Shown here piece after piece: positions 2,510 through 19,706 of a stretch of DNA of 64,000 nucleotides. A model generated the notes under the pieces. It saw only the letters and a program-made list of their open reading frames with translations, ran no database searches and was not told the DNA's origin. The translations under genes and the position numbers were made by a program. This DNA comes from Paludibacter sp. (GTDB lineage: Bacteria > Bacteroidota > Bacteroidia > Bacteroidales > Paludibacteraceae). The stretch covers positions 1,141 to 65,140 of the forward strand of contig JBAXMR010000008.1 of the NCBI GenBank assembly GCA_037134195.1, in the 5' to 3' direction. Positions within the stretch are counted from its first letter, which is position 1. Each line of letters begins with the position of its first letter.

Positions 2510-4447
2510 TTATGGTAAGATTATTTTTCTTGAATATGTTGATTGATTGTATTTTATAGAAACTATGTAAATTCCTTTCTTTAACATAGAAAGTGTAGTT
2601 CTTTCAGCGTTGGAAATCTTTTTGTTGAATAACATGCTGCCCGGCAAGTCAAAAACATAGAGTTGAGCTGTTTCTCCATTTTGTATTTCTGAAATTGAAA
2701 TAGTTCCATTTTTATTAATGTATATAGAGTTCTCCTGATTTAGTTTAGTTTCTTGAATATCGGTGTTAGGAGTTGTAAAATTCACAGTATTTATTTTCCA
2801 AAAATCATTTGTATTTGTTACTCCGAAATAGCTTCCATGCGTACGAATCATTGTGAGGTCGGGTTTAATAGTGTTATTGTAATAATTGACCCCATCAATT
2901 GAGGTAAGTACCACACAAGGGCGTGGACAACCATCGATAATATTATCGTGTATATTATAGCTTTTCAAGCCTCCTGCAGGAGAGAATCCATTTTGAGGTG
3001 CTTTTGATACAACTACCAATGCACCAGCTTGAGATTGAGTAGTCATACTAGCATTATACATACAATTTTGAATGGAATTATTCCCAATTTCAATATTGCT
3101 GGGACAGCCACCTTCCATCCAATAAAATTCAGGTGCAAGTGCAATCCCACTCATAGCGCTTCCAACAACAGTATTCCCATTGATAATTCCATTCGAAGAT
3201 TTTATCAAAATAGCCCGTGAGCGATTATGGCCTACCTGATTATTGATAACTTTAAATCCGGCACCACTTCTATTCATAGAGTAGAAAATATCCGAAATTG
3301 CCATTCCTGTCACCCAATTATCGATGGTAATAACCATACCATTTGTCCACTGATTCCGCTGTGAACCAAGCTTGGCATAACAGGCAGTTAATTGAGCTGT
3401 GGTTGGTGCTGTTAAAGCTGTAGTTACTGACTTAGCCACTCCCTTTCCACGAATAGAGCCATCATTGTTAACACAAACAATGCTGTCGCCCACACTCATT
3501 TTAAAATCGCTCAAATTGCTCGAGGAACATAGCAAATAAATACTTTTACTGGTGGCATTAATATCATATACAGGATAAAAATTACCATTAATAGCAATGC
3601 AGTCATCTCCATTGAATTCAACTTTACATTCTTCGATAATAGGACCGATTTTAGCAAATTTGCTATGAATTCCATCGGCACTCCCAGCACGCAAACGCTG
3701 AATTGTGTATTTTGAATCGTATGGTTTTCTGGTTACATTGCAGCGATAATAATGCGTTTTTTCACAATCATATTCATAAAATGAAAAACAGTTCGAATCG
3801 TATATGGTAATGCTATCCAGCAACATATTTTTACAAGCATTTAGTATAATGCCGTGAGCTGGTATATTTGTTCCGGTTGCAACAACATCCAATACTACAT
3901 AATCTCCGATTTGAACCACGCTGTTTTTGTCGGACACCCCCGTGAGCTGGAAAGTTCTTGTTCCGGTTTTTGTAACAGTTGCACCATAAATGTCACCAAA
4001 ATTCTTTACTAATTCCAGAGTTGATTGTCCAAATACCTGGACTTTAGTTCCTTTTACACTGTCAACGGGGTAACCATCGTGAATGGTAATATCCCAGGTT
4101 TTTCTGTCTGATGATATGGTATTAATGGTGACTTGCGTACAACATGGTGGATCATATTCGATGTAAAAATTATTAAACACCACGTTTTCACAACTTGTAA
4201 ACGAAAAACACAGCTTCTGCCTATTACATATAATTGTAGAGCCATTTCCGTTAATTGTTATATTCTTTTTATTACTGAAAGAATATGCTCCATTGGAAAT
4301 TAAATCAAGCGAATAAGTGCCCTTTGTAACATTGATTACCGAATTACCGCTCTGACTATTCAGAATAGTTCGCAAATCGGGGTAAGTTGTACCATATAAA
4401 GAATAAACTACAAGTATAATTAGAAACAATAAAATAGTCCTTTTCAC
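2510..4447 (-). CDS. Secreted GH110-like right-handed beta-helix enzyme with T9SS C-terminal sorting domain (copy A)
   Basis: 645 aa with a signal peptide. Motifs are IEYDPPCCTQ, SADGIHSK-x17-GDDCIAING and HNRSRAILIKSSNG. The C-terminal ~70 aa (..LYVFDLPGSMLF..GIYIVSIKYNQSTYSRKIILP) look like a Por/T9SS CTD. About 9 of 10 residues match 15873..17816 by eye. It appears to start at GTG. Confidence 0.8.
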   Translation of the reverse strand: MKRTILLFLIILVVYSLYGTTYPDLRTILNSQSGNSVINVTKGTYSLDLISNGAYSFSNKKNITINGNGSTIICNRQKLCFSFTSCENVVFNNFYIEYDPPCCTQVTINTISSDRKTWDITIHDGYPVDSVKGTKVQVFGQSTLELVKNFGDIYGATVTKTGTRTFQLTGVSDKNSVVQIGDYVVLDVVATGTNIPAHGIILNACKNMLLDSITIYDSNCFSFYEYDCEKTHYYRCNVTRKPYDSKYTIQRLRAGSADGIHSKFAKIGPIIEECKVEFNGDDCIAINGNFYPVYDINATSKSIYLLCSSSNLSDFKMSVGDSIVCVNNDGSIRGKGVAKSVTTALTAPTTAQLTACYAKLGSQRNQWTNGMVITIDNWVTGMAISDIFYSMNRSGAGFKVINNQVGHNRSRAILIKSSNGIINGNTVVGSAMSGIALAPEFYWMEGGCPSNIEIGNNSIQNCMYNASMTTQSQAGALVVVSKAPQNGFSPAGGLKSYNIHDNIIDGCPRPCVVLTSIDGVNYYNNTIKPDLTMIRTHGSYFGVTNTNDFWKINTVNFTTPNTDIQETKLNQENSIYINKNGTISISEIQNGETAQLYVFDLPGSMLFNKKISNAERTTLSMLKKGIYIVSIKYNQSTYSRKIILP

Positions 4448-4655
4448 AGTTTTTAATTTGAATTTTTTTGATAAAAAAGATTATAAGTAGTTGGAATTAT
4501 TAATGTCCTAAATTAAAGCTAATTCTATTTCCTAAACGCAAAGGAGCAAAGTAAATATGACGCAAAGTAAATATTATCTTTGCGGCTTCGTGTCTTAGCA
4601 ACTCAGCGTTCAAAATACGATATTGTATTGTTCTCATTACTTATAAGTTAGTTTA

Positions 4656-5355
4656 TTATTGATATTTTAGTTTGAAATTAGATAAGCCACAAGCGAGTAC
4701 CATAACTAAATCAAGGAAATCATCTATATAAGATCTGATTTCCTCTTTGACAATTCTGAATACTTTGCAGTTTCTAATTGTATTTTCGACTTTAACTCGA
4801 GTACTGGAAATTTGTTGATTCGATTTTTTTTAAATGTCAGTCAACTCTTCCTTTAGCTTTCTTTTTAGGGCAATTGATCTCGGCATTCTCAGGATTGAAT
4901 CCTTAGAAGCCAGAATCAAGCCAAATTCTAATTTTTTTAGAGAACTTAAGTTCTTCCATATCGCACATCATTTTGTCGTGCATTTTTCCTTCCCACGTTT
5001 TGGAGGTATATAAAATATTGTTATTCAATCCACTAACAATCAAAATTTTAATCGTGTGTTTTTTTGTCACTATAAAACTCTTTTTGAACATCAGGATCGC
5101 CAGGTCGAAGTATAGGACGTTCTTTTCCGTCGATAAGAACATCTTCTTCAGCAAGCAAATTATTTTAAGCATCTACTGTTCTACATGAAATGAATTCGCT
5201 TTTTCCAACGTAGTATTAAGTATTTTCTTTAGCAAATGAATCCATAGATTCGCCTGAGGTTGATTCATGTTGAATGAAGCTGCGTGAGCTTGTTGCAATG
5301 GATTATTCTTTATGTAAGAAAGAATAAATATCAACTTAGATCTACTTTGACACAT
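4656..5355 (-). pseudogene. IS5-superfamily (DDE_Tnp_4 / HTH_Tnp_4 type) transposase remnant, 5-prime truncated, multiple frameshifts
   Basis: Track ORFs 5173-5355 and 4903-5172 are supplemented by my own reading of 4656-4900. That reading gives ..PKKKAKG.., ISSTRVKVENTIRNCKVFRIVKEEIRSYIDDFLDLVMVLACGLSNF in shifted frames. This is the typical C-terminus of that transposase type. Confidence 0.6.
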
Positions 5356-5542
5356 TAGAAATTTTAAAATTAATTTCGTCCCTACGGGACTTTGTATATA
5401 GGACTTGTTTATGTTTTTACCATAATTACAGCTCTACGAGGTTAAAAAAAGTGACGTAGTCACGAAAATATGGTAAAAGCATGAATATAAATAACCCTTA
5501 AAGTCCCGTAGGGACGACATATAATTAATGTGTCAAAGTAGA
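5341..5542. repeat. 202-bp nested inverted-repeat element (MITE-like or structured RNA)
   Basis: A perfect 17-bp outer IR, TCTACTTTGACACATTA (5341-5357), pairs with TAATGTGTCAAAGTAGA (5526-5542). A perfect 18-bp inner IR, TCGTCCCTACGGGACTTT (5376-5393), pairs with AAAGTCCCGTAGGGACGA (5500-5517). A central palindrome GTGACGTAGTCAC lies at 5451-5463. Confidence 0.6.
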
Positions 5543-5579
5543 ATTAGATTGCAGAATGATTAATTTACTTTTCAAGCCC

Positions 5580-5602
5580 CATTACTCAAAAATTGAGTAA
5601 TG
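5580..5602 (-). terminator. Candidate terminator hairpin downstream of 5652..9212
   Basis: A perfect 10-bp stem CATTACTCAA / TTGAGTAATG with a 3-nt loop sits about 50 nt past the stop codon. There is no clear U-tract. Confidence 0.4.
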
Positions 5603-5651
5603 AGACCTGAATTTTGTAAACTTAACAACAACTTTTCTTAGCTATAAAAAA

Positions 5652-8600
5652 TCAATTAATTATTATTTTTCTGATTATGCTCTTACCTTCATTTGTCAGT
5701 TTTACTAAATAAGCACCAACCGATAAATTGTTATTTTCCTGAATATTTGTTCCTGACAAATCTCTTGAAATTACTTTCTGGCCTACAGCATTGAATATTT
5801 CAAGCTTTGCTCTATTTACTGTACCATTCACAACAATCTGTCCATTACGGGTTGAAATCCAAACATTTCCATTATTTTCAGGATTAATTCCTGTTGTTGT
5901 TGAAGGAGCTTTGAAAGTCAGTGCGAAACGACTTGTATTAGCAGTTGTTATTTCTGAATAAAAATTATAAGCAGTAGTTGTCAAATAAGTAATTACCGGA
6001 TTCAGCGGATCAATATTATCTTTCAGTAAAATCTGTGTTCCTTCAGCAAAATTACTCATAAGAGAAGCGTTGATAGTAAAATCACCGGATTTTCCAGTTG
6101 TAAATCCAAGAGCTATTTCAGTATCGTAAGGTATGCTGTTCATAGTATTTATGGCAAGCTGTGAACCATCAACAACGGTAAATAACTCAGGTATATTTAC
6201 ATTGCCATTCGACATTTTACCGGAATCGTAAGCATCCAGATTATTAGTTGCTCCGGAATAAAACTTAATTATTGTTTCATCGCCTGTAATTCCATTGAAC
6301 ACATTCAAACCTAATAAACCATAGGTTTCGTTCTTTAAAGTAGGTGTTTTCAGTGGAGTGGTAGGCACAGTTCCAGTAATATCTGGCATTGTTACGGTTG
6401 TTGTATGCGAACGATTTGAATTAGACAAAGCGATGGACTGGTTGTTTAATTTTGTTCTCACCCAGAATCCCTGCATAGGCGGAATATATCCTGTTACCCG
6501 ACCGGTTAAGCTGGAATTGGTACCAAAACCGTCAGTAGAATTTACCGTTTCGCAATGGTAATAACCGGCTGCATCGCGGGTACGATACCATACCGTTGGC
6601 TCTATACCGGCTGAATTTGCACTGATGGATGGCAATACATTCAGATACGAAGGATATGGATTTCCAATCAGGTTAAATCCGTGTTTTGGATTAGCTGAAG
6701 TATAAGACAGACCGCTGATAGTTTGATCACCCGTATTTAAACCGGTACCGCTAAATGTAACCGTTGATGTTGCTACACTTGGTTTTACAATATAACCAGC
6801 TCCAAAAGCCATAGTTGTGGCTCCGCTTACCGTATTCCATACTGCGCCGGCTGCATATCCATTCGCACCGGTTGACTGATTTGTATCACTTTCGGGGTAG
6901 GAATAGAAAGTTAATGAACCTCCATCGACTCCTGGTAATGATGATGCACCTGATACCGGAGAACTCATATACCAGTTGCGGGATGAGCTAAGATATTGTT
7001 TTACAGTAGCTGAGGTTACTGAAGTTGTTCCTCCATAATCATTATAAGTTCCGGTACCATTTGTGCCATCACTGTTTATACTTATAGCAGAAGCTATTAA
7101 TGAGCTTGTATTCGTAACCTTACCACCACCTGCAATAGTAAGGCTGTTTATGTTCGTTGGTGCGTTTATTGTCAATAATGCAGCATTTCCTACTATTACA
7201 TCACTAACCGGTGTCAAGGTCAAAGAACCTATTGAAGTAGAAGATGAAACGTTGATATTATTTGCTGTTGCAGATGGTGTAACGGAACTTGAAGTTGTGC
7301 CCGAACCGGTTCCTCTGATATTCGTGGCAGTTGCAGTAAAGGTGTAGGCAGTTCCATTGGTTAAACCTATTACCTTAAGCGGACTTGTCGAACCTGTAGC
7401 AGTGAATCCACCCGGTGATGATGTGACAGTATAGGAAGTTATATCAGCACCACCATCACTAGCCGGAGCTGCAAAGGCTATAGATGCTTGCGCATTACCT
7501 GCGGTTGCCACTACTGATGTAGGTGCTCCCGGAACTGATGGATAATATTTTGCTGCTTCGTTGGTTGTTGTTGATTCATATAGCCAGCCTCTTGGCATAG
7601 AAGTACTGCTGAATGGTCCTGTTTTTGAAGTTTGAGAATAACCTAATACTAGATAATTGTTTACTGCCGGTGTGTATGAAGTATAATCTGCTGTAACTGT
7701 CAATGAGGCATTGGTTACATCAAGTTCTGTACACGAAATTTTATCGAAATCAGTTCCTGCAGTTGTTTTACCTTTGATTTGCATCAATACACTTCCATAA
7801 AGTGGGAATTTAGTACCGGCAGCCGATGGGGTTAACACGATTGTTCCAATTCCGCTCGTACCTCCGGTATAGTCGCCTGGCGAAAGTGTACTACCTGTAG
7901 CTGTTACCAAAGTGCTTGCTGCAAAGGTACAAGAACCATTGATGGTTGCACCATTGTTATTATTCAAAACAACCACTGAAGTCGCGGCAGTAGAACCACC
8001 TGAAACACCATAATTAAAGTTTATCACACCACCCGAATTGTTATTCAGTATTGGATAAGTGCTTGTTGTTCCTGATGTACCTGAACTCGTAATAGAACCT
8101 TTCGTTATGTTAATAGTTCCGGTATTTGTGAATGTCTGATTTGCAGCCTTAGTACTTAACTTTATAGCATTGGTGTAACCGTATAAATTCAATATTCCAC
8201 TATTTGTAAAAATATAGGGCATTGAAGAAGCTACATATATACCTAAAGCACTTGACACATCTTTTGAGTTAATAGTGGCAGTACCCGTATTTATAAACTT
8301 ACCATATCCAACAGTACTAGGAGCTGCTCCTCCAAAAACAGTGGGTTGTTCAAATCCACTTATAGATAGTGTCCCATTATTAGTAAATGAACAAAAAACA
8401 GATTCTGTGGTTTGCCACATATTAATAGCATGCAATGCAGTTCCTGATGTACTAGTACCAGCAGTGATATATATTGAGCCGTTATTAATTATTGAAGCTG
8501 AATTGGCCAAATAGAACGCATTTCGACCAGATCCAATATTAAGATTCAAGGTAGTACCGCTATTGATGGTTATTGTTGAGCCTGCAGTTGTTATATTAAA

Positions 8601-9212
8601 AGGAGTAAAGGCTAAAGAGCCTGTAGCATCTCCCATTGTGAAACCCGCTCCTCCAATCGTACCTGCCGCATTTTCCGCTGCTGTAAAGAAAGATGTAGAA
8701 GCTTTTCCAACTAAGCTGTTTATTCCATTAAAAGTTAAAGTATTACCAGTACCATTTATAGAAACACCATAATTTACTGTTGATGCATTTGCAGTAGTAA
8801 TGGACAATGTGCCTTGATTAACAAAAGTATTTGTACCAGCCAGATACATTGCACCAGTTGTAGCTCCAGCAGTATTTAGGCCGGGGGCAATTGTGAGCGT
8901 ACCATTGTTTGTTAAGCTCGCTCCAGCGCTAAATGAGATTTTTTCCACATTCACGGTAGTTCCAACTGCAATAACTACCGATTTGCCAGCATTAATTGTA
9001 ACAATATCAGCTGCAGTCGGAACTGCTGAACTAACTGATGCAGTGGTGCTACTTGTACTCCAGTTAGAAATAGTAGCCCAATCGGTATTGGTTGTACCAA
9101 AGAAGTAGAGCGGCGTTGCATAAGCTCCGGAAGAATAAACCAAGCCAATAAAAAGCAAGGCGATAAATTTATAAACGCTCCGATAATTGAAAGAAATTGA
9201 TTGATTTTTCAT
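5652..9212 (-). CDS. Giant T9SS cargo: beta-strand stalk module, Fn3, ~450-aa unknown domain, T9SS CTD (type B)
   Basis: 1186 aa with a signal peptide. The stalk (TDWATISNWS..NNGTLTI.. repeats, ..LSPGDYTGGTSGIGTIVL..GTDFDKISCTELDV..) is homologous to the N-termini of 13650..15830 and 9396..13424. The Fn3 reads APTSVVATAGNAQASIAFAAP..YTFTATATN. The CTD reads ..KLEIFNAVGQKV..GAYLVKLTNEGKSIIRKIIIN. Confidence 0.8.
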   Translation of the reverse strand: MKNQSISFNYRSVYKFIALLFIGLVYSSGAYATPLYFFGTTNTDWATISNWSTSSTTASVSSAVPTAADIVTINAGKSVVIAVGTTVNVEKISFSAGASLTNNGTLTIAPGLNTAGATTGAMYLAGTNTFVNQGTLSITTANASTVNYGVSINGTGNTLTFNGINSLVGKASTSFFTAAENAAGTIGGAGFTMGDATGSLAFTPFNITTAGSTITINSGTTLNLNIGSGRNAFYLANSASIINNGSIYITAGTSTSGTALHAINMWQTTESVFCSFTNNGTLSISGFEQPTVFGGAAPSTVGYGKFINTGTATINSKDVSSALGIYVASSMPYIFTNSGILNLYGYTNAIKLSTKAANQTFTNTGTINITKGSITSSGTSGTTSTYPILNNNSGGVINFNYGVSGGSTAATSVVVLNNNNGATINGSCTFAASTLVTATGSTLSPGDYTGGTSGIGTIVLTPSAAGTKFPLYGSVLMQIKGKTTAGTDFDKISCTELDVTNASLTVTADYTSYTPAVNNYLVLGYSQTSKTGPFSSTSMPRGWLYESTTTNEAAKYYPSVPGAPTSVVATAGNAQASIAFAAPASDGGADITSYTVTSSPGGFTATGSTSPLKVIGLTNGTAYTFTATATNIRGTGSGTTSSSVTPSATANNINVSSSTSIGSLTLTPVSDVIVGNAALLTINAPTNINSLTIAGGGKVTNTSSLIASAISINSDGTNGTGTYNDYGGTTSVTSATVKQYLSSSRNWYMSSPVSGASSLPGVDGGSLTFYSYPESDTNQSTGANGYAAGAVWNTVSGATTMAFGAGYIVKPSVATSTVTFSGTGLNTGDQTISGLSYTSANPKHGFNLIGNPYPSYLNVLPSISANSAGIEPTVWYRTRDAAGYYHCETVNSTDGFGTNSSLTGRVTGYIPPMQGFWVRTKLNNQSIALSNSNRSHTTTVTMPDITGTVPTTPLKTPTLKNETYGLLGLNVFNGITGDETIIKFYSGATNNLDAYDSGKMSNGNVNIPELFTVVDGSQLAINTMNSIPYDTEIALGFTTGKSGDFTINASLMSNFAEGTQILLKDNIDPLNPVITYLTTTAYNFYSEITTANTSRFALTFKAPSTTTGINPENNGNVWISTRNGQIVVNGTVNRAKLEIFNAVGQKVISRDLSGTNIQENNNLSVGAYLVKLTNEGKSIIRKIIIN

Positions 9213-9241
9213 GATTTAATTTAATTATGATTATTATGATG

Positions 9242-9307: not shown

Positions 9308-9395
9308 TTATATTCGTTTTTTTATAAGAAAAACTAGACTTACTGGTTTTATCCATTAAGCCAGGCTTTAGTAAACAATCAAATTTTTGTTCAAC

Positions 9396-12300
9396 TTAAA
9401 TCACAATTTTACGGTTAAGTAATATTCCTTCAGTGCTAATCTGAATGATATAAACGCCATGAGGATAGTTATTTAATTCTATATTTGTTTGTTTTGTAAA
9501 AGCAGTCGTTTGTAAAAGCAGTCCATTTACATTAAAAAGTTGTAATTTAAGCAGTTTTGCTTCCTTGTATTCAACAGAAAGTGAATTTGAATTGAAATAA
9601 AATGTAAAATTATCATCCTTTAAATCAATTTTGTTGGTTACAACAGATTGCAATCCCGAAAGATTCGAAGTCCATACATCATCAGTATTTGTTATTCCAT
9701 AATTTTTGCCATGTTGTCTCACCATTGTCAAATCCGGAGTAAGCTGATTGTTGTAGTAACTGTATCCATTTATTGACGTTAACACAACATTCGGTTTTGG
9801 ACATCCCGTGATAATATTGTCGTGGATAGAAATGTTAGTAAATCCACCTGCAGCTGAAATAGCCTTTGATCCATTAAAAGAAATTACTGTCAATGGAGCG
9901 GCTTGACTTTGCCCCCAACTGCTTGCTTCAAACATACACTTTGAAATCAGATTATTACTGATTTCCACATTGCTGGAACAACCGGCTTCCATCCAATAGA
10001 ACTCGGGAGCTAAAACTATACCTGCTTCCATGCTTCCTCTTACATAATTATTTTTAATGGTACCATTCGATGCTTTTACCAATATGCCACGAGAACGGTT
10101 GTAACCCACTGTGTCGTTTTCTATTTTAAAGTTATTACCTGTTCGTGCCTTTGAGTAAATTAAATCGCCAATACTCAATCCTGTGTACCAGGCTGGTATG
10201 CTAATTCTAAATCCATATATAAAAGATGTTGGACTTGACATACCACCAGTATATAACGCGATACAATTGGAAATTTCAGTGGTAGTAGGTGCAGATGTAG
10301 TTAATGTCAATGCTTTGCTGTTTCCAATAATAGTGCCGTTATTATCTACCAATACAATACTGTCGCTATTTTGCACTTTAGGGGTAGTTGAACTTGACAG
10401 CAGATACAAATAACCGTTGGCCTGATCTACATTATAAACTGGATAAAAATTACCGTTCACCGCAATACAGTCATCACTGTTATACTCCACTCTGCAATTG
10501 GTTATAGTAGGACCAACAGTGGCGTGTTTACTATGAATTCCATCGGCATTTCCGGATCTTAATCTGGGCACTGATACATTCTGGTCATCGGTTTTTCGTG
10601 TCACTTTACAACGGTTGTAGGTACTGTTTTCGCAATCTGATTCATAAAAAGAGAAACAATTGGAGCCATACATAGTTACATTATCCATGATTAGATTTTT
10701 ACTGCCAGATATATATATGCCATGTGTTTCAGTGTTGACCGGTTTTACATCGAACACTGCATAATCACCCACTGCTTCACTGTAAGGTGAAGTAGCCGAT
10801 GTTTTTGTAATTGTAAGCACATCCGAAGATTGAATGTACGTAAAACCTGAGTAAATTGTCCAATAGTTTTCCTTTAACGTCAGGGTGTTTTTATCAAAGA
10901 GTTCCAGTTTATTGGTTGAAATATCAGTCAATGGATAACCGTTGCAAATTTTCACTGTCCAAGTAAGGTGATCGGATGAAACGGCTGTTATTATACCTTG
11001 CGTAAAGCAAAGCGGATCATAATCGACACTCAGATTGGACATCTTAAAATTAGTACAATTAATAACTCTGAATGCCAGCGACTGCTTGTCACAAATTATC
11101 TCCGAACCGTTTCCTTCCACCGTTACATTGCTCAATCCGCTGAATTGGTAAGCTCCCGAAGCCAAGGTAAGTGAATAAGATCCCTTTGGTATGTTTATTG
11201 AAGAACTTCCTGATTGAGCATCCAATACCGTTCTTAAATCGTTCAATGCAGGTGTTATTGCATTTGATGCTGCACTTGAACTACTTGTGCCGTTTTGATT
11301 TGTGGCTGTAACGGTAAACGTATAACTTGTACCATTGGTTAAACCATTAACCGTAATGGGACTGGTAGTACCTGTTGCAGTTATTCCACCCGGGTTGGAA
11401 GTAACTGTATAGCCTGTAATTGCACTAATTCCAGCATTACCGGGCGCAGTAAATGAAACGGTAGCTTTTTTATTCCACCCCACTGCTGTTCCTATTGTAG
11501 GTGCAAAAGGCAAAGAAGTATCGTATTTTATAGCCACATTGGTTGCTGATGAAGCATCTACAATCCAACCGTTGGCTATCGAGGCAGTTAGAAAAGAGCC
11601 AGTTTTAGAAACGGTTGAATATGTTAATGGTATATAATCCAAATTTGACGGAGTATAATTTACTGTTGCGCTTAATGTTGAGTTTGTAAGGTCTAATTCT
11701 GAACATTGTAATTGGTCATAATCCGTACCAGCAGTTGTTTTGTTGTTCACAAGCATATTCAAACTTCCTGCAAGTGGAAACTTTGTTCCTGTGGCTGAAG
11801 GTATTAAAACCATAATACCGATTCCACTGATTTTATTTACCGTATCGTAATCACCCGGCGACAGCGTACTTCCGGCATTTGTTGAAAGAGTTGAAGCAGG
11901 GAAAGTACACGAACCATTTATTGTTGCACCGCTATTGTTATTAATTGTTACTGCATTGGCAGCATTCGTTGTACTTGATGGTATGCCATAATTAAAGTTG
12001 ATTATTCCACCCGAATTATTATCAATGGTTTGATACGTGCTTGCAGTTCCTACCGTTCCACCACTGGTAATGTTTCCTTTTGTAATGTTTATCGTCCCTG
12101 TATTCGTAAATGACCCGCCATAGCTTTTTGCATTCAGCGAAATTGCTCTGTAGCTTACATTTATATTTAGCGTTCCGCTGTTGATAAAAACATTTGGTAG
12201 GTTGCTTAACGAAAATATCCCCAGCGATGAACCAGATGTTCCGGTGTAGTTGATGGTTGTAGTGCTGTTTACTTTGTTCTCAAATTTACAATATCCTGTT

Positions 12301-13424
12301 GAACCCGTGTTAGACCCACCAAATACGGTTGGTTGTTCAAATCCAGACATTAGGAATGTTCCGTTGTTGGTAAAAGTTGAGTTTAGACCAGCAGTAGTTT
12401 CCCATATTTGAAGTGCATGCAGACTTGTTCCGGTTGTAGTGGTATAGGTGTTGATAGTTCCATTGTTAGTTATCGAAGCACTGCTCGACAAATAAAAAGC
12501 ATTATTGGCATTAATATACGCTGACAAAGTAGTACCCGCAGAAATAATAATGGCAGCATTAGTAGATGTGGCGGTAACTAAACTATAATTAACCTGAGCA
12601 CCAGAGCTACCAATTGTAAACCCACTTCCGGAAATTGTAGTTGTAGAACTGCCGCTTGCCGAAATGACTGACTTGGAAGCTCCTGCAACAATATTGACAG
12701 TACCGTTAAATATCAAACTTGCTGTACCACCCGTACCGATTACATTATTGAATCCGGCACTTGTATTGAGTGTAAGTGTTCCTTCGTTATCGAAGTAGGC
12801 GGTGGTAGCTGATGAAAAGGCAATTGCATTGTCGCTGTTTTGGGTTACGACATTCAACGTTCCATTATTGGTAAGTTTTCCTGTTCCGGCAATTGTAATG
12901 CTATTCACCGAGATTGTTGAACCTACTGCAATGACTACCGTCTTGCCTGTTGGAATTGAAACTTTGTTATTGATACCAGGAAGAACGCCACCAGTCCAGT
13001 TCGAAGCTGTAGCCCAATTGGTACTTGTACTGCCAGACCAAGTGATTGTACTTATTGTTTTAGGAGTAATGCTGTTGGATGCTGTGCTTGTAAAATCGCC
13101 ACCACCATCGCCCACAGCCCGAACGGTAAAAGTGTAAGCCGTCCCAGAAGTCAAGCCGCTGACTGTTATTCCGGTAGCTGTTCCAGTAGCCGTTACATTT
13201 CCCGGACTAGATGTCACTGTATAGTTTATTGTACCGGTTCCGCTGTAAGTTGGTACAATAAAATTCACTTTTGCTGATGTAGAACTAGCTACCGAAGCCG
13301 AAACATAAGTAGGTGCATTGGAAATTACTATTAATCCAAAAGAACTGACTGAATAACATAAGCAGAAAAAAACAAGGATAAATGTTTTAGGAGCAAAGAA
13401 AATTTGAAATGTAGAAGTTTTCAT
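9396..13424 (-). CDS. Giant T9SS cargo fusion: Fn3, stalk module, Fn3, GH110-like beta-helix enzyme, T9SS CTD (type C)
   Basis: 1342 aa. The N-terminal Fn3 (..GTAYTFTVRAVG) precedes a stalk homologous to the type-B proteins. A second Fn3 reads ..GTSYTFTVTATNQNG. From about nt 11250 downward lies an enzyme module homologous to 2510..4447 (DYDPLCFTQG, NADGIHSK-x17-SDDCIAVNG, YNRSRGILVKASNG). The CTD reads ..LQLFNVNGLLL..GVYIIQISTEGILLNRKIVI. Confidence 0.8.
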   Translation of the reverse strand: MKTSTFQIFFAPKTFILVFFCLCYSVSSFGLIVISNAPTYVSASVASSTSAKVNFIVPTYSGTGTINYTVTSSPGNVTATGTATGITVSGLTSGTAYTFTVRAVGDGGGDFTSTASNSITPKTISTITWSGSTSTNWATASNWTGGVLPGINNKVSIPTGKTVVIAVGSTISVNSITIAGTGKLTNNGTLNVVTQNSDNAIAFSSATTAYFDNEGTLTLNTSAGFNNVIGTGGTASLIFNGTVNIVAGASKSVISASGSSTTTISGSGFTIGSSGAQVNYSLVTATSTNAAIIISAGTTLSAYINANNAFYLSSSASITNNGTINTYTTTTGTSLHALQIWETTAGLNSTFTNNGTFLMSGFEQPTVFGGSNTGSTGYCKFENKVNSTTTINYTGTSGSSLGIFSLSNLPNVFINSGTLNINVSYRAISLNAKSYGGSFTNTGTINITKGNITSGGTVGTASTYQTIDNNSGGIINFNYGIPSSTTNAANAVTINNNSGATINGSCTFPASTLSTNAGSTLSPGDYDTVNKISGIGIMVLIPSATGTKFPLAGSLNMLVNNKTTAGTDYDQLQCSELDLTNSTLSATVNYTPSNLDYIPLTYSTVSKTGSFLTASIANGWIVDASSATNVAIKYDTSLPFAPTIGTAVGWNKKATVSFTAPGNAGISAITGYTVTSNPGGITATGTTSPITVNGLTNGTSYTFTVTATNQNGTSSSSAASNAITPALNDLRTVLDAQSGSSSINIPKGSYSLTLASGAYQFSGLSNVTVEGNGSEIICDKQSLAFRVINCTNFKMSNLSVDYDPLCFTQGIITAVSSDHLTWTVKICNGYPLTDISTNKLELFDKNTLTLKENYWTIYSGFTYIQSSDVLTITKTSATSPYSEAVGDYAVFDVKPVNTETHGIYISGSKNLIMDNVTMYGSNCFSFYESDCENSTYNRCKVTRKTDDQNVSVPRLRSGNADGIHSKHATVGPTITNCRVEYNSDDCIAVNGNFYPVYNVDQANGYLYLLSSSTTPKVQNSDSIVLVDNNGTIIGNSKALTLTTSAPTTTEISNCIALYTGGMSSPTSFIYGFRISIPAWYTGLSIGDLIYSKARTGNNFKIENDTVGYNRSRGILVKASNGTIKNNYVRGSMEAGIVLAPEFYWMEAGCSSNVEISNNLISKCMFEASSWGQSQAAPLTVISFNGSKAISAAGGFTNISIHDNIITGCPKPNVVLTSINGYSYYNNQLTPDLTMVRQHGKNYGITNTDDVWTSNLSGLQSVVTNKIDLKDDNFTFYFNSNSLSVEYKEAKLLKLQLFNVNGLLLQTTAFTKQTNIELNNYPHGVYIIQISTEGILLNRKIVI

Positions 13425-13451
13425 TTGATTGAATTATTTTAAAATTTATTG

Positions 13452-13517
13452 CAAAGGTATTTCTATATGCTTTATTATATAATCTCAAAACGCTCAAATA
13501 ACTTCATGTTTGTAACA
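13452..13517 (-). promoter_or_regulatory. 66-bp conserved promoter module, copy 2 (upstream of 9396..13424)
   Basis: The minus strand reads TGTTACAAAC, N7, TATTTGAG CGT TTTGAGATTAT, N19, TACCTTTG. Spacing is identical to copy 1. Confidence 0.65.
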
Positions 13518-13583
13518 GAAAGCTATTTGAAAATTGAAATTGATAGTTGAAATCCTGCCAAACCGTACAAAATGTAACATTTT

Positions 13584-13622
13584 TGCAAAAAAAATAACGG
13601 ATAGTGAATTTCACTACCCGTT
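13584..13622 (-). terminator. Rho-independent terminator after 13650..15830
   Basis: The minus strand has a 13-bp stem AACGGGTAGTGAA / TTCACTATCCGTT with one G-T pair. It is followed by ATTTTTTTTGC. Confidence 0.7.
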
Positions 13623-13649
13623 ACGAGCCGCTATCTGTTATTTATTCAA

Positions 13650-15830
13650 TTAGTTAACTAACACTTTCTGAACTTTTATACCTTGAGCCGTTTCGAGTTT
13701 TATTAAATATATTCCTTTGCTTTTCATTTCAATGTTTCGATTCGATGTCTTTTCGGAAAGAACCAAACCTCCAACACTATTGAATACATTTACCATGCCA
13801 ATTGCTCCATGTAAATTGAGTGTACGTCCTTCAACTGTAATCATTATTTTATCAGCACTTTGATTTACAATAGCAGTATTTACACTTGGTGTAACTGAGT
13901 TAGAAGCAGCACTTGCCACACTTGTTCCTCTGATGTTTGTCGCAGTTACAGTGAAAGTATAAGCAGTTTCATTAGTTAGCCCTGTTACTACAATAGGACT
14001 TGCTGTGCCTGTAGCAGTTATACCATCGTTGGATGTAACTGTATATAATGTAATATCAGCACCACCATCACTCGCTGGTGCGGAAAAAGCCACAGAAGCC
14101 TGAGCATTGCCTGTAGTTGCTACTACCGATGTAGCCATACTTGGTACAGATGGATAATATTTTGCTGCTTCGTTGGTAGTGGTTGATTCATATAGCCAAC
14201 CTCTTGGCATAGAAGTACTGCTAAATGGACCGGTTTTGGAAGTTCCTGAATAAATTAGTACCAGATAATCGTTTACAGCAGGGGTATATGAAGTGTAATC
14301 CGCTGTAACGGTCAATGTAGCGTTGGTTACATCAAGTTCGGTACACGAAATTTTATCGAAATCTGTTCCAGGGGTTGTTTTTCCTTTAATTTGCATCAAT
14401 ACGCTACCAGAAAGAGGAAATTTAGTTCCTGCAACAGATGGTTTTAAAACGATTGTTCCAATACCGCTTACGCCAGCTGTATAATCTCCGGGTGAAAGTG
14501 TGCTTCCCACTGCTGTAACCAACGTATATTGAGGAAAAGTACATGAGCCATTGATAGTTGCACCGCTATTGTTGTTTATGATCACTCTATCTGTCGCTAC
14601 AGAAGTTCCTGCAGAAACACCATAGTTAAAGTTAATAACACCTCCAGAATTATTGTCGATGGCTTGATAAGTAGTTGAAGTGCCTAATGTACCACCACAC
14701 TGAATACTCCCTTTTGTTATGTTGATAGTTCCTGTATTGGTAAATGAACCACCATAGGTTTTTGCAGATAAAGCAATTGCTCTATAGCTAGCATTTAAAT
14801 TCATCGTACCACTATTGATAAAGATATTCGGCAAATTTCCTGCGGAGGATATTCCAATTGTACCTGATGATGTACCTGATGATATACCCGGATAGGTAGA
14901 AGTTACAATTCCTGTTGATTTATTTTCGAATTTACTATAAGAAGTGCCACCAGATCCACTAAACGAAGTGGGTTGTTCAAAACCCGACATCAATAATGTA
15001 CCATAATTTGTAAAAGTAGCAACATATCCATTAGCGGATGTTTGCCAAACACTTATAGCACGAGGATTTGTTCCTGTATCTTTAGTATAGATATTTAATG
15101 TTCCGTTATTGATTATTGAAACTGAGCTAGCCAAATAAAAACCAACCTTCCCTGTTGAACTACCAATATATAAATTTATAGTAGTATTGGTATCAATGGT
15201 AATAGTAGCCCCAGTAGAGGTTATAGAAAATGGTATAAATGTCGCTCCGATAGTTGAACTTCCAATTGTAAACCCAGTTCCACTTATTGTTGTAGAAGAG
15301 CTACCACCTGCAGCAAATACATTATTACTTCCTGCTTTAGCAGCTAAGTTATTTGTTCCATTAAAAGTTAGTGTATTGCCTGTTCCATTAAGACTTATGG
15401 CATTAGAAACTGAAGTTTGATTGGCTGAAGTAATTGTCAATGTACCTTCATTATCAAAAGTATTTGTACCTGAGATGGTAAGTGCTGAACCAGTTGTAGC
15501 ACCTGCTGTATTTAATCCAGGGGCAATTGTCAGTGTTCCATTGTTGGTCAAACTTGCACCTGCATTTAGTGTTATTTTTTCCACGCTCACAGTAGTTCCA
15601 TTTGCAATTACTACAGATTTACTCGTGGCAATAACTACCACATCGGCCGAAGTTGGAACTGTTCCTAAATCCCAATTTGTGGCTGTTGCCCAATCTGTAT
15701 CCGTTGTGCCATTAAACGTAACAGTTACTGCATAAGCTTCCACAGTAAAGAACATACAACAAAGAAATAATGCAAATTGCCTAATTGAAGACGATAAGCA
15801 AGAAGTTAAAGTAGAATTTTGATTGTTCAT
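13650..15830 (-). CDS. T9SS cargo: stalk module, Fn3, T9SS CTD (type B-prime, no extra domain)
   Basis: 726 aa. The stalk and Fn3 are close to 5652..9212. One shared block is identical or nearly so: GPFSSTSMPRGWLYESTTTNEAAKYYPSVP. The CTD reads ..MVNVFNSVGGLV..GIYLIKLETAQGIKVQKVLVN. Confidence 0.8.
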   Translation of the reverse strand: MNNQNSTLTSCLSSSIRQFALFLCCMFFTVEAYAVTVTFNGTTDTDWATATNWDLGTVPTSADVVVIATSKSVVIANGTTVSVEKITLNAGASLTNNGTLTIAPGLNTAGATTGSALTISGTNTFDNEGTLTITSANQTSVSNAISLNGTGNTLTFNGTNNLAAKAGSNNVFAAGGSSSTTISGTGFTIGSSTIGATFIPFSITSTGATITIDTNTTINLYIGSSTGKVGFYLASSVSIINNGTLNIYTKDTGTNPRAISVWQTSANGYVATFTNYGTLLMSGFEQPTSFSGSGGTSYSKFENKSTGIVTSTYPGISSGTSSGTIGISSAGNLPNIFINSGTMNLNASYRAIALSAKTYGGSFTNTGTINITKGSIQCGGTLGTSTTYQAIDNNSGGVINFNYGVSAGTSVATDRVIINNNSGATINGSCTFPQYTLVTAVGSTLSPGDYTAGVSGIGTIVLKPSVAGTKFPLSGSVLMQIKGKTTPGTDFDKISCTELDVTNATLTVTADYTSYTPAVNDYLVLIYSGTSKTGPFSSTSMPRGWLYESTTTNEAAKYYPSVPSMATSVVATTGNAQASVAFSAPASDGGADITLYTVTSNDGITATGTASPIVVTGLTNETAYTFTVTATNIRGTSVASAASNSVTPSVNTAIVNQSADKIMITVEGRTLNLHGAIGMVNVFNSVGGLVLSEKTSNRNIEMKSKGIYLIKLETAQGIKVQKVLVN

Positions 15831-15872
15831 AAAATTGAATTTTAGAAGATGAATAATAGATTTATTTAGATA

Positions 15873-17816
15873 TTATGGTAAAATTATTTTTCTTGAATAC
15901 GTTGATTGATTGTATTTTAAAGAAACTATATAGACTCCTTTATTAAATTGAGAAAGGTTTGTTTTATCAGTGTTTGAAATCTTTTTGTTGAGTAACATTC
16001 TGCCAGGCAGGTCAAAAATAAAGAGTTGAGCAGTTTCCCCATCTTCCATACCAATTATTGATATATTGCCATTCTTATCAATTGAAATTAAGTTTTCAGG
16101 ATTTAATTTAGTTTCGTGAACATCGGTATTTATAGACGTAAAATTTACAACATTTATTTTCCAGAAGTCTTTCGTATTTAACACTCCCAAACTACTTCCA
16201 TGTGTACGAATCATTGTCAGGTCAGTCGTGGTGGTGTTATTGTAATAATTTACTCCATCAATAGAAGTAAGCACCACACATGGGCGAGGGCAACCATCGA
16301 TTACATTATCGTGAATATTGTAATTTTTCAGGCCACCAGCGGGTGAAAAACCACCTTGTGGAGCTGAAGATACTACCACTAATGCACCAGCCTGTGATTG
16401 TCCGGTCATGCTGGCATTATACATACAATTCCGAATGGTATTGTTGCTAATTTCTATATTGCTGGGACATCCTGCTTCCATCCAATAAAACTCGGGTGCA
16501 ACGGCAATTCCACTCATGGCACTACCTACAACGGTATTTCCAGAAATAATTCCATTCGATGATTTTATTAAAATTGCCCTTGAACGGTTATGACCTACCT
16601 GATTGTTGATGACTTTAAATCCGGCACCACTTCTGTTCATAGAGTAGAAAATATCCGAAATCGCCATTCCGGCAATCCAATTATCGATGGTTACTACAAA
16701 GCCGTTTGCAAACTGATTCCTCTGATTACCAAGCTTGGCATAACAGGTTGTTAACTGAGCTGTAGTTGGTGCTGTTAATGCTGCTGAAATTGATTTTGCC
16801 ACTCCTTTCCCCCGTATTGAACCATCATTATTTACACAAACGATGCTGTCGCCCACACTTATTTTAAAATCACTCAGATTGCTTGATGAACAAAGCATAT
16901 AAATACTTTTACTTGTGGCATTTATGTCATATACCGGATAAAAATTTCCATTTACAGCGATACAATCATCTCCATTATATTCAACTTTACATTCTTCGAT
17001 AATGGGACCAATTTTAGCAAATTTGCTATGAATTCCATCGGCACTACCGGCACGTAAACGCTGAATGGTATATTTAGAATCGTATGGTTTTCTGGTCACA
17101 CCGCAACGGTAGTAATGCGTTTTTTCACAGTCGTATTCGTAAAATGAAAAACAGTTTGAATCATACATGGTAATACTATCCAACGACATATTCTTGCAAG
17201 CATTCAGTATAATGCCGTGTGCGGGTATATTTGTACCGGTAGCAGCCACATCCAATACCACGTAATCTCCTAGTTGAACCACACTGTTTTTGTCGGACAT
17301 GCCGGTTAGTCGAAACGTTCTTGTACCAGTTTTAGAAACCGTTATACCATAAATATCACCAAAATTCTTTACTAATTCTAAAGTTGATTGCCCGAATACC
17401 TGAACTTTAGTCCCTTCTAAGCTGTCAACCGGATACCCATCATGAATGGTAATATCCCATGTTTTTTTATCTGATGATATGGCATTAATGGTTCCTTGGG
17501 TGCAACATGGAGGATCGTATTCGATATAAAAATTATTGAACACTACATTTTCACAACTTGTAAATGAAAAACATTGTTTTTGCCTGTTACATATAATTGT
17601 AGAACCATTACCGTTAATGGTCACATTTTTTTTATTGATAAACGAATATGCGCCGCTGGATATTAAATCAAGCGTGTAAGTACCTTTAGGAACATCAATT
17701 ACCGAGTTGCTGCTCTGATTATTCAGAACAGTGCGTAAATCGGGATATGTCGCTCCATATAAAATAGAAACTACAAGTACATTTAGAAACAGTAAAATTG
17801 TTTTTTTGATTTTCAT
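15873..17816 (-). CDS. Secreted GH110-like beta-helix enzyme with T9SS CTD (copy A-prime)
   Basis: 647 aa, near-duplicate of 2510..4447 with the same motifs. It lies 42 bp upstream of 13650..15830 on the same strand, so the two are probably co-transcribed. Confidence 0.8.
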   Translation of the reverse strand: MKIKKTILLFLNVLVVSILYGATYPDLRTVLNNQSSNSVIDVPKGTYTLDLISSGAYSFINKKNVTINGNGSTIICNRQKQCFSFTSCENVVFNNFYIEYDPPCCTQGTINAISSDKKTWDITIHDGYPVDSLEGTKVQVFGQSTLELVKNFGDIYGITVSKTGTRTFRLTGMSDKNSVVQLGDYVVLDVAATGTNIPAHGIILNACKNMSLDSITMYDSNCFSFYEYDCEKTHYYRCGVTRKPYDSKYTIQRLRAGSADGIHSKFAKIGPIIEECKVEYNGDDCIAVNGNFYPVYDINATSKSIYMLCSSSNLSDFKISVGDSIVCVNNDGSIRGKGVAKSISAALTAPTTAQLTTCYAKLGNQRNQFANGFVVTIDNWIAGMAISDIFYSMNRSGAGFKVINNQVGHNRSRAILIKSSNGIISGNTVVGSAMSGIAVAPEFYWMEAGCPSNIEISNNTIRNCMYNASMTGQSQAGALVVVSSAPQGGFSPAGGLKNYNIHDNVIDGCPRPCVVLTSIDGVNYYNNTTTTDLTMIRTHGSSLGVLNTKDFWKINVVNFTSINTDVHETKLNPENLISIDKNGNISIIGMEDGETAQLFIFDLPGRMLLNKKISNTDKTNLSQFNKGVYIVSLKYNQSTYSRKIILP

Positions 17817-17854
17817 TTTGAATTTAGATTATAGGATTTTTCCTAAAATAGTTT

Positions 17855-17901
17855 CAATATCCTTTATTGCCAATACATTGGAAGGCAATAGAAGGATATT
17901 G
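17855..17901 (-). terminator. Candidate terminator (nested hairpin) after 17922..19706
   Basis: An outer stem CAATATCCTT (17855-17864) pairs with AAGGATATTG (17892-17901). An inner stem ATTGCC (17866-17871) pairs with GGCAAT (17884-17889). Confidence 0.5.
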
Positions 17902-17921
17902 ATGTTGCTTTATTCTGTCAA

Positions 17922-19706
17922 TTATTTCTGCATTTTTTGGATAATTACCGTACCATCGTAATTAACTACCTGTACGATGTATAAACCTGTTTGCAAATTT
18001 GAAGTGTTTAATTTTGAGACATTAGCCTGAACATACTGTCTAACTCCTGCCAAGTCAAATACAGAAATGCTCTTGACTAAATTCGGCAAATAAATCATGT
18101 CAGTAAACGGATTTGGATAAGCAAAAGTTGAATTTTTCAGTATTTCGTTAACTGCAGTAGGGCCATCATATTCATAAGCACCTGCATCTTTGCTTGCTCC
18201 TATTTTGGCTATTCCTCTAATATCCAATGCTGGAACCAGATTCAACCCGTTTAACAAAAATTCAGCTTTTCCAAATTCGATGGCCAACGAACCTTGGTTT
18301 AATTTGAGATAGGGAACTCCTGTTGCAGGTACAGTTAAGACGGAATCCAGTTTTACGATGTTATTTAATTTACCTACTGAATCTGTGGTAAGATGAACAG
18401 CAGTACTAAGCGAACCTCCAAACCCATCAAAAACACTTCCGGTAATGTTCAAAGATTTATAAAGTTGTGTTGGTTTTGTTAAGTTAACAACTAACCCGTA
18501 ACCCCAGTATTTTAGTAAAGTTGGATCCCACACTCTATCCTGTACAATATTATTGATAAAGCTAAAATCAACGCCTAGGTCATTGAAAAACAAACTAGAT
18601 TTTGCAGCAGTAGGATTGCTGGGTCCATTTTTAAAAAATGTGTTGTTGATAAAACTGATAGTTCCGTTTAATCCATTTTCACTCCCGCCTGTAATTATAA
18701 AAGCTGTACCATGTGTAGCATTGCAATAGTTTGCATAAAAAGTATTATTTACAAACTGTAAATTCACTTTACCTGCAGTAGTTGCAAAACTACCTACTTT
18801 GTCAATCAAAATTGCACCACCAGATCCATACGCATAATTTTTACTAAAAGTGGAGTTGGTTATTTTCAGTTTTGCATCACAACCTGCATAAAGTCTGAAA
18901 GCGATTGCACCGCCTGCAGGTGATTTTGTATTCAAAGTCATATCATCGTTGGATGTATTTGAATCAAAATAGCATTTATTGATGGTTACATTGGCAGTTT
19001 GAGATTCGACTTTCAATGCACCACCAAATTTATAGTCGTGCGTTCCATCTTGTGTACTGTTTGCTTTAAATGTACAACTTTCAAAATTAGCAATACCTGT
19101 TCCCTGAACACATACTGCTGCGCCATGTGACGAAATACAATTTTGGAATAAAACATTTGTACAATTTAATGTACCAGTTGAGTAAATTGCACCGCCTCCA
19201 CGTAAAGCCAAGTTTGCGTTTTCTACATTTACATTCTCAAGTGTAAGTGTTGCAGTAGAACTTACATTAAACATACCTCCCCAATAGTCTGTTTTACCAG
19301 TTGCAAATGCATATTGACTATTCCGAATGGTCATATTCTTTATGGAAAGACTTCCTGTTCCGGTAATAGCAAAAAATTGAGGAGTCTCTGAACCTCTGGC
19401 AATATCATCGGCAGTTAAACCTTCAATAATTACATTGTCTTTGGTTGATCCGGCAGTTCCCTGAAGCGTTACATTGACAGTTACGGTTGCCTTTGCTAAA
19501 ACTGCATGGGTAGTGGCTGCTAAAACTACGGTGCAACCATCTGTCCATTTAGTAGCATTGAGTGACATCCATGGAGATGATGAACTGGTTCCTTCATTTG
19601 CATCATTTGCATTAGTAGAATTTGGGTCAACATAAAATGTTGTTTGAGATTGTATTGACAACACGGGTATCAATACCATTAACAGAAGGTAAAATTTTTG
19701 TTTCAT
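17922..19706 (-). CDS. Pmp-like (GGAI / FxxN repeat) beta-helix surface protein with T9SS CTD
   Basis: 594 aa with a signal peptide. Repeated GGA(I/L) units occur (GGAIYSTG, GGALKVES, GGAIAFRL, GGAILID). FxxN units also recur (FKAN, FDSN, FSKN, FVNN, FYAN, FINN, FFKN). The CTD reads AYPNPFTDMIYL..ISVFDLAGV..GLYIVQVVNYDGTVIIQKMQK. Confidence 0.75.
   Translation of the reverse strand: MKQKFYLLLMVLIPVLSIQSQTTFYVDPNSTNANDANEGTSSSSPWMSLNATKWTDGCTVVLAATTHAVLAKATVTVNVTLQGTAGSTKDNVIIEGLTADDIARGSETPQFFAITGTGSLSIKNMTIRNSQYAFATGKTDYWGGMFNVSSTATLTLENVNVENANLALRGGGAIYSTGTLNCTNVLFQNCISSHGAAVCVQGTGIANFESCTFKANSTQDGTHDYKFGGALKVESQTANVTINKCYFDSNTSNDDMTLNTKSPAGGAIAFRLYAGCDAKLKITNSTFSKNYAYGSGGAILIDKVGSFATTAGKVNLQFVNNTFYANYCNATHGTAFIITGGSENGLNGTISFINNTFFKNGPSNPTAAKSSLFFNDLGVDFSFINNIVQDRVWDPTLLKYWGYGLVVNLTKPTQLYKSLNITGSVFDGFGGSLSTAVHLTTDSVGKLNNIVKLDSVLTVPATGVPYLKLNQGSLAIEFGKAEFLLNGLNLVPALDIRGIAKIGASKDAGAYEYDGPTAVNEILKNSTFAYPNPFTDMIYLPNLVKSISVFDLAGVRQYVQANVSKLNTSNLQTGLYIVQVVNYDGTVIIQKMQK

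Follow-up and report, generated by a model that had tools for sequence, protein, structure and literature searches.

Six type IX secretion cargo genes beside a polysaccharide utilization locus in a Paludibacter-like bacterium, a probable exported outer layer with enzymes related to GH110

Models of the polysaccharide utilization locus (PUL) usually place lipoprotein enzymes and surface glycan-binding proteins at the cell surface. The 64-kb stretch of DNA analysed here (the window), from a metagenome-assembled genome (MAG) of a Paludibacter-like gut/sediment bacterium, carries a PUL and, next to it, an array of six consecutive minus-strand genes, A to F, at positions 2510-19706. All six products combine a Sec-type N-terminus with a type-A C-terminal sorting domain (CTD) of the type IX secretion system (T9SS). 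The reading favoured here, with some reserve, is that the six genes encode the T9SS-exported outer layer of the adjacent PUL and are not an island borne by insertion sequences (IS).

Among the closest described systems is the chitin locus of Flavobacterium johnsoniae, whose ChiA is reportedly a single GH18-GH18 enzyme with a type-C-like CTD that is released. Like the window, this locus joins a SusC/SusD-type PUL to an outward multi-modular enzyme that bears a T9SS signal and not a lipoprotein anchor. Unlike ChiA, the window encodes six type-A CTD proteins, namely three GH110-like enzymes and three apparently non-catalytic partners, with a conserved pair of E and F and two unannotated modules, S and U. 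It is at the CTD that type-A cargo is cleaved and attached to the surface, as established for Porphyromonas gingivalis. The P. gingivalis cargo proteins RgpB and HBP35 share the CTD fold and sequence family of the window proteins, for which cleavage and attachment are assigned by analogy; they are proteolytic, whereas the window cargo is predicted to be glycan-directed, and they carry a single Ig-like domain where the CTD of B is preceded by the ~470-aa U module. 'Ca. Paraporphyromonas polyenzymogenes' (PMC5831590) is, like the source of the window, an anaerobic member of the Bacteroidales with consecutive modular genes for carbohydrate-active enzymes (CAZymes) that end in CTDs, with hypothetical flanking modules and with paralogous catalytic domains in varying arrangements. 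Its catalytic domains are GH5 cellulases, in contrast to the GH110-like enzymes of the window, and it lacks archetypal PULs, whereas the window array adjoins, and is paralogous with, a full PUL with a hybrid two-component system regulator (HTCS).

The preliminary description of this DNA had named no described system of this kind, a statement that goes too far. A T9SS-secreted CAZyme encoded in a PUL, F. johnsoniae ChiA, had already been described, according to the passages of PMC5831590 and PMC7426924 that cite it, and Bacteroidales were known to carry multi-modular T9SS CAZymes in operon-like clusters (PMC5831590). The general idea of T9SS enzymes in PULs is thus established and not new. What is new is a recurrent and conserved T9SS pair of E and F within HTCS/SusCD loci, a sister family of GH110 with predicted exported and periplasmic forms, and the modules S and U, both without annotation and U occurring very widely. 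The conservation of E and F beside HTCS or SusC/D genes would provide a recurrent and testable case of anaerobes in which T9SS and Sus act together as a single unit, and four unannotated families (E, F, the S beta-solenoid and the pre-CTD module U) are flagged for biochemistry. A broader proposition, that some anaerobic Bacteroidales have handed the whole outward layer of the PUL to the T9SS, with E and F replacing surface lipoproteins, and that at the same time U is a T9SS-linked unit of surface presentation or attachment, is put forward tentatively and as a whole is doubtful.

Inspection of the open reading frames (ORFs) confirmed six intact genes on the minus strand. Gene A (2510-4447, 645 aa) consists of the GH110-like E module and a CTD. 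Gene B (5652-9212, 1186 aa) encodes a signal peptide followed by S, Fn3, U and CTD, with S at residues 31-560 (7533-9122), U at residues 646-1115 (5868-7277) and the CTD at residues 1116-1186 (5655-5867). Gene C (9396-13424, 1342 aa) is arranged as Fn3 (13044-13319), S (11511-13043), Fn3 (11241-11510), E (9630-11240) and CTD (9399-9590), the additional Fn3 at the N-terminus giving it two. Gene D (13650-15830, 726 aa) contains S (14145-15728), Fn3 (13896-14144) and CTD (13653-13838), gene E (15873-17816, 647 aa) is again a GH110-like enzyme with a CTD, and gene F (17922-19706, 594 aa) encodes a predicted right-handed beta-helix of Pmp repeats, a segment resembling choice-of-anchor Q and a CTD. 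This map of shared modules, as first drawn in the preliminary description (E-CTD twice, S-F-U-CTD, F-S-F-E-CTD and S-F-CTD, where F denotes Fn3, and a Pmp-like beta-helix-CTD protein), was borne out by pairwise BLAST: genes A and E are 86% identical over their full length, residues 729-1342 of C are 44% identical to A and E, residues 126-728 of C are 55% identical to D, and B and D are 62% identical over S and Fn3. Domain searches found no catalytic module in B and D. The architecture of gene C recurs in homologues from other samples (P0124-P0129).

The C-termini were compared with TIGR04183, the NCBIfam model of the T9SS type-A sorting domain, which has a cut-off of 23 bits. Five genes scored above it (A 37.3, B 31.3, C 31.0, E 38.1 and F 34.8 bits) and gene D fell slightly below at 20.0 bits; Pfam PF18962 gave concordant matches at lower scores, and homologues of D bear PF18962 (P0114 and P0115). 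AlphaFold2 models were made of the C-terminal 541 residues of B (predicted local distance difference test, pLDDT, 79.7) and of the whole of D (pLDDT 84.1). The tail of the B model, about 70 residues, superposed on the solved CTDs 8glk_D, 7pq4 and 5ag8 with a Foldseek probability of 1.00, the best fit being NucA bound to the T9SS (8glk_D, TM-score 0.70, root-mean-square deviation 3.0 Å), while 7pq4 and 5ag8 are the CTD of RgpB. The D model matched the RgpB CTD 5ag8 at rank 13, so the T9SS-like tail that had been noticed in all six genes is supported by profile score in five and by structural match in D. Direct reading of the N-termini revealed a basic n-region followed by a hydrophobic h-region in six of six. 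Literature searches on the T9SS in Paludibacter gave nothing specific.

The enzymes had been called GH110-like, which proved correct as a distant relationship only. A single E sequence gave a weak match to GH110 in the PDB (8pvs at 9e-7). A profile of the E family, built from a sample of 43 sequences that also provided the conservation counts below, matched eight GH110 chain sequences over nearly the whole domain of about 470 residues (8pvs 1.2e-27, 9i4f 1.7e-24, 9beh 2.4e-23, 8yk1-3 ~5e-21 and 7jw4 8e-16), and it is from this match that a beta-helix fold is predicted for E. The residues Asp260 (codon at 17037-17039) and Asp283/Asp284 (16965-16970; minus strand, codons checked) of gene E are the predicted catalytic residues; in the GH110 pattern the first and third Asp are base candidates and the second is the acid. 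They were invariant in 43 of 43 sequences, and the hidden Markov model (HMM) alignment set this D...DD pattern on the D...DD of AmGH110 (8pvs). The spacing, D-x22-DD, is the same as that of the catalytic residues D321/D344/D345 of PdGH110B (PMC7939477) and D328/D351/D352 of AgaBb (PMC11368712). In addition W445, present in 43/43, and E447, present in 33/43, align with the W-x-E used by AgaBb at the -1 subsite. The likeness to the GH110 enzymes PdGH110B (7jw4), AgaBb (8yk1-3) and AmGH110 (8pvs) therefore extends to a beta-helix alignable over ~470 residues, the D-x22-DD spacing and a largely kept W-x-E, and a bona fide GH110 is encoded in the same PUL as a paralogue of E. The differences are an identity of only 21-25%, the failure to match the Pfam GH110 barrels and the T9SS CTD of many members. 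Gene E is 22% identical to the window's own GH110 (46560-48332), which itself matched both Pfam GLAA-B barrels at 4e-17 and 8e-12. Because the Pfam GH110 barrel models give no match, E is not filed as GH110, and it is best described as a candidate uncharacterised sister family; the conserved residues suggest that it is probably an inverting glycosidase with a galactose-type -1 site. Relatives of E carry the public names 'T9SS type A sorting domain-containing protein', 'hypothetical' or a weak 'GH28', and no characterised member of the family was found in the literature. A tail of about 80 aa was present in 29 of 43 members and absent from 13. Genes for tail-less E proteins also occur in Verrucomicrobiota (Rubritalea and Akkermansiaceae) and Planctomycetota (Thermoguttaceae; loci L016, L017 and L018), and sulfatase homologues lie near them in both Verrucomicrobiota loci; a sulfated-glycan substrate for the E family is hinted at by this neighbourhood.

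The array lies, as the preliminary description had it, between rpsU (477-668) and a PUL. The HTCS gene (21380-25402, plus strand) is divergent from the F-E-D end of the array, and the PUL (25467-50961) encodes a GH2, a GH27, a GH88-PL8 fusion, a tail-less paralogue of E, a sulfatase, a DUF5013 lipoprotein, two SusD/SusC pairs, the GH110 at 46560-48332 and a GH2-malectin protein. The E paralogue (32013-33692), a predicted beta-helix flanked by GH88-PL8 and the sulfatase, shares 31% identity with E over 525 aa (E=2e-71) and is presumably periplasmic. The glycoside hydrolases, lyase fusion and sulfatase of the PUL all have signal peptides free of a lipobox, and a lipobox Cys was found in the PUL only in SusD and DUF5013 proteins. 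This leaves the T9SS proteins as the only candidates for surface catalysis, in contrast to the usual lipoprotein-based models of PULs.

A scan of species-representative genomes with a 10-sequence E alignment gave 18 loci, which were annotated by BLAST against the window proteins; the window's own MAG is not among these representatives. Eight other genome loci contained E-CTD with one or two F genes, either next to an orthologous HTCS or immediately behind SusC-SusD. In Coprobacter secundus (L003) and two MAGs (L005 and L006) an HTCS with 48-57% identity to that of the window, 57% in C. secundus, adjoins E-CTD followed by one or two F-like genes. A further locus (L023) has the order SusD (79%)-DUF5013 (63%)-GH110-HTCS (60%)-E-F. 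The order SusC-SusD-E-F-F is found in four loci from Paludibacter, Dysgonomonas and Paludibacteraceae MAGs (L009, L012, L014 and L015); L009 and L012 have an HTCS ahead of SusC, none is present within the sequence examined of L014 and L015, and a GH110 follows E-F-F in L012, L014 and L015. Across L003, L023 and the related contig L021, which is considered below, the HTCS orthologues next to E and F are 57-72% identical to that of the window. By gene order, E and F form a conserved pair beside HTCS or after SusC-SusD in Paludibacteraceae, Coprobacter and Dysgonomonas. The coupling of the array to a Sus-type locus, which had been proposed from position, thus gained much stronger support from the E paralogue in the PUL and from the company of E and F with HTCS or SusC and SusD in eight loci, and it is the principal new result.

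Module S had been regarded as a stalk. Its composition is rich in Thr (18%), Ser (12%), Gly (12%) and Asn (9%), with an NxGT[LI] motif about every 30 residues, and it had no Pfam match even at E<=10. Residues 36-450 of the D model form approximately 13-14 three-strand rungs with a pLDDT mostly of 85-97, followed by a beta-sandwich at 459-558, Fn3 at 567-640 and the CTD; the S module of B likewise comprises a predicted beta-solenoid with a capping beta-sandwich. From the strand pattern and pLDDT of the D model, S is predicted to be a right-handed beta-solenoid, roughly 7 nm long. Foldseek searches with this model gave no specific relative of the solenoid, the list being dominated by tandem-Fn3 and insulin-receptor ectodomain matches. 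In an alignment of 19 S sequences no acidic residue of the solenoid was invariant, the invariant positions being Asn and Gly ladder positions. S is taken to be structural or binding and non-catalytic, because of the solenoid model and the lack of an invariant acidic residue.

S was N-terminal in all the S-bearing proteins and homologues examined. With the anchor, the CTD, at the C-terminus, the part nearest the cell would be the enzyme or U, and S would point outward, so that by analogy with other type-A cargo S looks like a reach or binding arm and not a pedestal. Furthermore, two of the three E enzymes, A and E, have no S at all, and the description of the enzymes as stalk-displayed is consequently not supported. 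Homologues of S are fused N-terminally to a CE2/GDSL esterase with a CTD (P0133 and P0134) or to U, and S may be duplicated in tandem, giving S-S-Fn3-U-CTD proteins of up to 1855 aa (P0102, P0106, P0110 and P0135); in sequence terms it behaves as a reusable module. A gene with S also lies directly beside the HTCS of the HTCS-SusC-SusD-E-F-F locus of a Paludibacter MAG (L009, 1-830, minus strand), which suggests that S proteins associate with this type of PUL beyond the lineage of the window.

U, the all-beta, multi-domain module of about 470 aa in gene B, is unannotated. It gave no Pfam match (E<=10) and no NCBIfam model, phmmer of B against the PDB returned only Fn3 and CTD matches, and in the Foldseek search of the U and CTD model only the CTD was matched, the remainder being generic beta-sandwich noise with no PDB fold match for the U body. 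The family is large: at E<=1e-3 at least 2771 cluster representatives (50% identity) were matched, and 1028 of them still at E<=1e-30. U ends a median of 74 aa before the C-terminus, in front of the T9SS CTD, a position about 74 aa from the end being seen in 39 of the 40 top matches tabulated and in the 30 homologues from the first search. The domains N-terminal to U include Fn3, InlB-B, YDG/MBG, cadherin-like domains, carbohydrate-binding modules, pectinesterase, chondroitinase B and M6 peptidase, so that its partners span proteases, lyases, esterases and adhesin domains. A single HMM, for U, would be enough to give thousands of large surface proteins in Bacteroidota a label.

Gene F was rightly called Pmp-like at the level of motifs, as it contains four GGA[IL] and nine FxxN motifs. 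It scored 20.4 bits against the Pmp repeat PF02415 (cut-off 20.6) and 23.8 bits for the segment resembling choice-of-anchor Q (cut-off 25), and its beta-helix fold is predicted from the repeat motifs only. F resembles chlamydial Pmp and 'choice-of-anchor Q' proteins in its GGA[IL]/FxxN repeats, a predicted right-handed beta-helix and the anchor-Q-like segment, both model scores lying just below cut-off; unlike chlamydial Pmp, it has no autotransporter barrel, is predicted to be exported through its T9SS CTD and occurs in a PUL context. A chlamydial Pmp autotransporter was accordingly ruled out as an identity for F, since its C-terminus is a T9SS CTD and no autotransporter beta-barrel is present. 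Phmmer of F against the PDB gave only Fn3/CTD-type matches and no relative, and the F-family profile matched CTDs plus a stretch of 30 residues at the N-cap; this last match, to GH136 lacto-N-biosidase, was too short for use and was rejected. TIGR04183 was matched by 19/20 members of the F family. No charged residue was invariant in the helix body, and F is regarded with modest confidence as a non-catalytic partner.

The gap between F and E is 105 bp and that between E and D is 42 bp, and a strong terminator-like hairpin, with a 14-bp stem and a T run, was detected by sequence scan between D and C (13594-13624, minus strand). On account of the short gaps and the hairpin after D, F-E-D plausibly form one transcription unit divergent from HTCS, with C, B and A standing alone. 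As an observation in itself, the hairpin would divide the six-gene array into at least two transcription units. A scan for sigma-70 promoters was at background, with 72 matches against 74.8 expected, the sigma-70 model being unsuited to Bacteroidota promoters.

With the six genes read as the outer layer of the PUL, a pathway may be outlined. After Sec export the T9SS would carry the six proteins across the outer membrane, where loss of the CTD would leave a new C-terminus through which each protein would be fixed to the cell surface, as in other type-A cargo; alternatively the proteins may be released. The enzyme or U would then be next to the SusC/D importers, with the S solenoid and Fn3 extending outward as a non-catalytic arm. 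Since no conserved charged residues are found in the repeat bodies, F, B and D, together with the S arm of C, probably hold or bind the polymer as glycan-binding or adhesive partners. Degradation would begin at the surface, where the E enzymes would cut or trim an acidic, sulfated, alpha-galactose-bearing glycan; the products would enter through SusC/D and be broken down further by the periplasmic E paralogue, GH110, GH27, GH2, GH88-PL8 and sulfatase, which would complete the process. The HTCS probably senses a product and controls the F-E-D unit or the array. Duplication and module fusion in the Paludibacter lineage would have given rise to A, B, C and D, with the IS elements arriving later.

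Several observations weigh against this reading. The order of the pair is not constant, being F-E in the window and in L021 and E-F elsewhere, and a distance of 17-26 kb, with the HTCS in between, separates the array from the SusC/D pairs of the window. Genes for the T9SS machinery (PorK/L/M/N, Sov/SprA, PorV and PorU) were absent from the 64-kb window, as had been remarked at the outset. The E, A and C sequences gave no match at E<=10 to Pfam GLAA-B barrels I and II, and 10 of the 43 family members have Gly in place of E447. GH110 enzymes are exo-alpha-galactosidases, an odd activity with which to start extracellular degradation. All that points to non-catalytic roles for F, S and U is the lack of conserved charged residues and of database matches. 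Finally, an IS3 element lies 140 bp upstream of F in this strain, where its insertion may have cut the array off from control by the HTCS.

IS elements are also the starting point of the island that the preliminary description had proposed, a mobile and strain-specific unit that flanking IS elements would have carried or assembled, acquired horizontally and by accident placed beside the PUL. Such elements do occur at both ends of the array and inside it, and to this extent the proposal stands. On the left, between rpsU and A, is a decayed IS4-like element (974-2398, plus strand; DUF4372 and DDE_Tnp_1) with inverted repeats at 974-992 and 2380-2398 and a transposase broken over three frames; the 1.2-kb gap between A and B holds a relic of an IS5/harbinger-type transposase (4903-5355, minus strand; HTH_Tnp_4 and DDE_Tnp_4 fragments, Pfam 3.6e-7 and 4.8e-6); and in the spacer between HTCS and F is an intact IS3 element (19846-21176, minus strand; HTH_Tnp_1/rve, orfA 20826-21104, orfB 19990-20778) with 16-nt inverted repeats at 19846-19861 and 21161-21176. 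The island would also accommodate gene A, which lies beyond the internal relic and has no homologue closer than E, and the local GC of about 0.40-0.42 at the S modules. These elements belong to three families, with no matching copies at the two ends, which argues against a composite transposon; no tRNA or integrase was found (tRNA scan of the window); and the GC is raised where S is encoded, in stretches rich in Gly, Ala and Thr. Most of the evidence against a delimited island comes from L021, a 22.7-kb contig from an unrelated sample (Logan SRR32481745) that retains the order HTCS-F-E-D-C-B' without IS3, with identities to the window of 72% for HTCS, 88% for F and 92% for E, followed by D-like, C-like and B-like genes. 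The comparison with this relative covers the right-hand (HTCS-F) junction. Its IS-free spacer can be aligned with the window to either side of IS3, the breaks falling at 19848 and 21172, where the element ends, for which reason IS3 is read as a recent simple insertion in a conserved regulatory spacer. As the contig keeps the locus and E-F with HTCS or SusC/D recurs across several families of Bacteroidales, strain specificity was not upheld and the island is largely refuted, to be retained only as a very improbable account. Gene A, for which E is the nearest known homologue, is best explained as a divergent copy of gene E that is specific to the lineage. IS3 may, in this strain, either uncouple or re-drive the expression of F-E-D.

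An adhesin or surface-coat cluster unrelated to nutrition, in which the E enzymes would remodel the cell's own or a neighbour's exopolysaccharide and the solenoid and Pmp proteins would serve attachment or biofilm formation, deserves consideration although it is unlikely. It would explain why three of the six proteins (B, D and F) have no recognisable catalytic domain, and it fits the Pmp-type repeats and PATR-like N-terminal motifs that are generally typical of adhesins as well as the U-CTD cassette on many adhesin-type architectures (YDG, MBG, cadherin-like and InlB-B). It does not account for the conserved synteny with HTCS and SusC/SusD, for the E paralogue, presumably periplasmic, inside the PUL between GH88-PL8 and the sulfatase, or for the true GH110 genes that recur next to E-F in L012, L014, L015 and L023. 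It is hardly conceivable that the array is an artefact of chimeric assembly across the S and E repeats: the sequence does come from a MAG and the modules repeat at 70-80% nucleotide identity, but the repeats are too diverged (<=82% nucleotide identity) for collapse or mis-joining, all six ORFs are intact, the independent sample L021 has the same gene order and the same contig is present in ENA and NCBI records. The export of an outer layer for the PUL is accordingly preferred. Between the two records of the contig (L001 and L002), gene B has 1186 aa in ENA and 1185 aa in NCBI, at 99% identity, a small assembly or version difference within a repetitive gene.

The remaining observations concern the PUL and its surroundings. 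The GH88-PL8 fusion (28612-31998, minus strand) is 1128 aa long. A stand-alone GH88 of 391 aa in locus L024 of a close relative (1222-2397) is 93% identical to the N-terminal part of the fusion, and the next gene there encodes an unrelated protein of 626 aa; the fusion would seem either to be recent or to need checking against reads. The same locus contains, at 14309-20999, a B-like gene (77% identical) that ends a GH2/GH88/sulfatase/SASA cluster and is followed by genes of integrative-element type (RteC, Toprim/AAA_25 and HipA). The two SusD/SusC pairs of the window are in tandem within one PUL (36641-46128, minus strand), and the second SusC (38360-41116) is without an N-terminal CarboxypepD_reg, only Plug being matched in Pfam. 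Further along the window, two adjacent and paralogous PAS-LuxR (GerE) regulators of 256 and 257 aa are encoded on the minus strand at 58685-60376.

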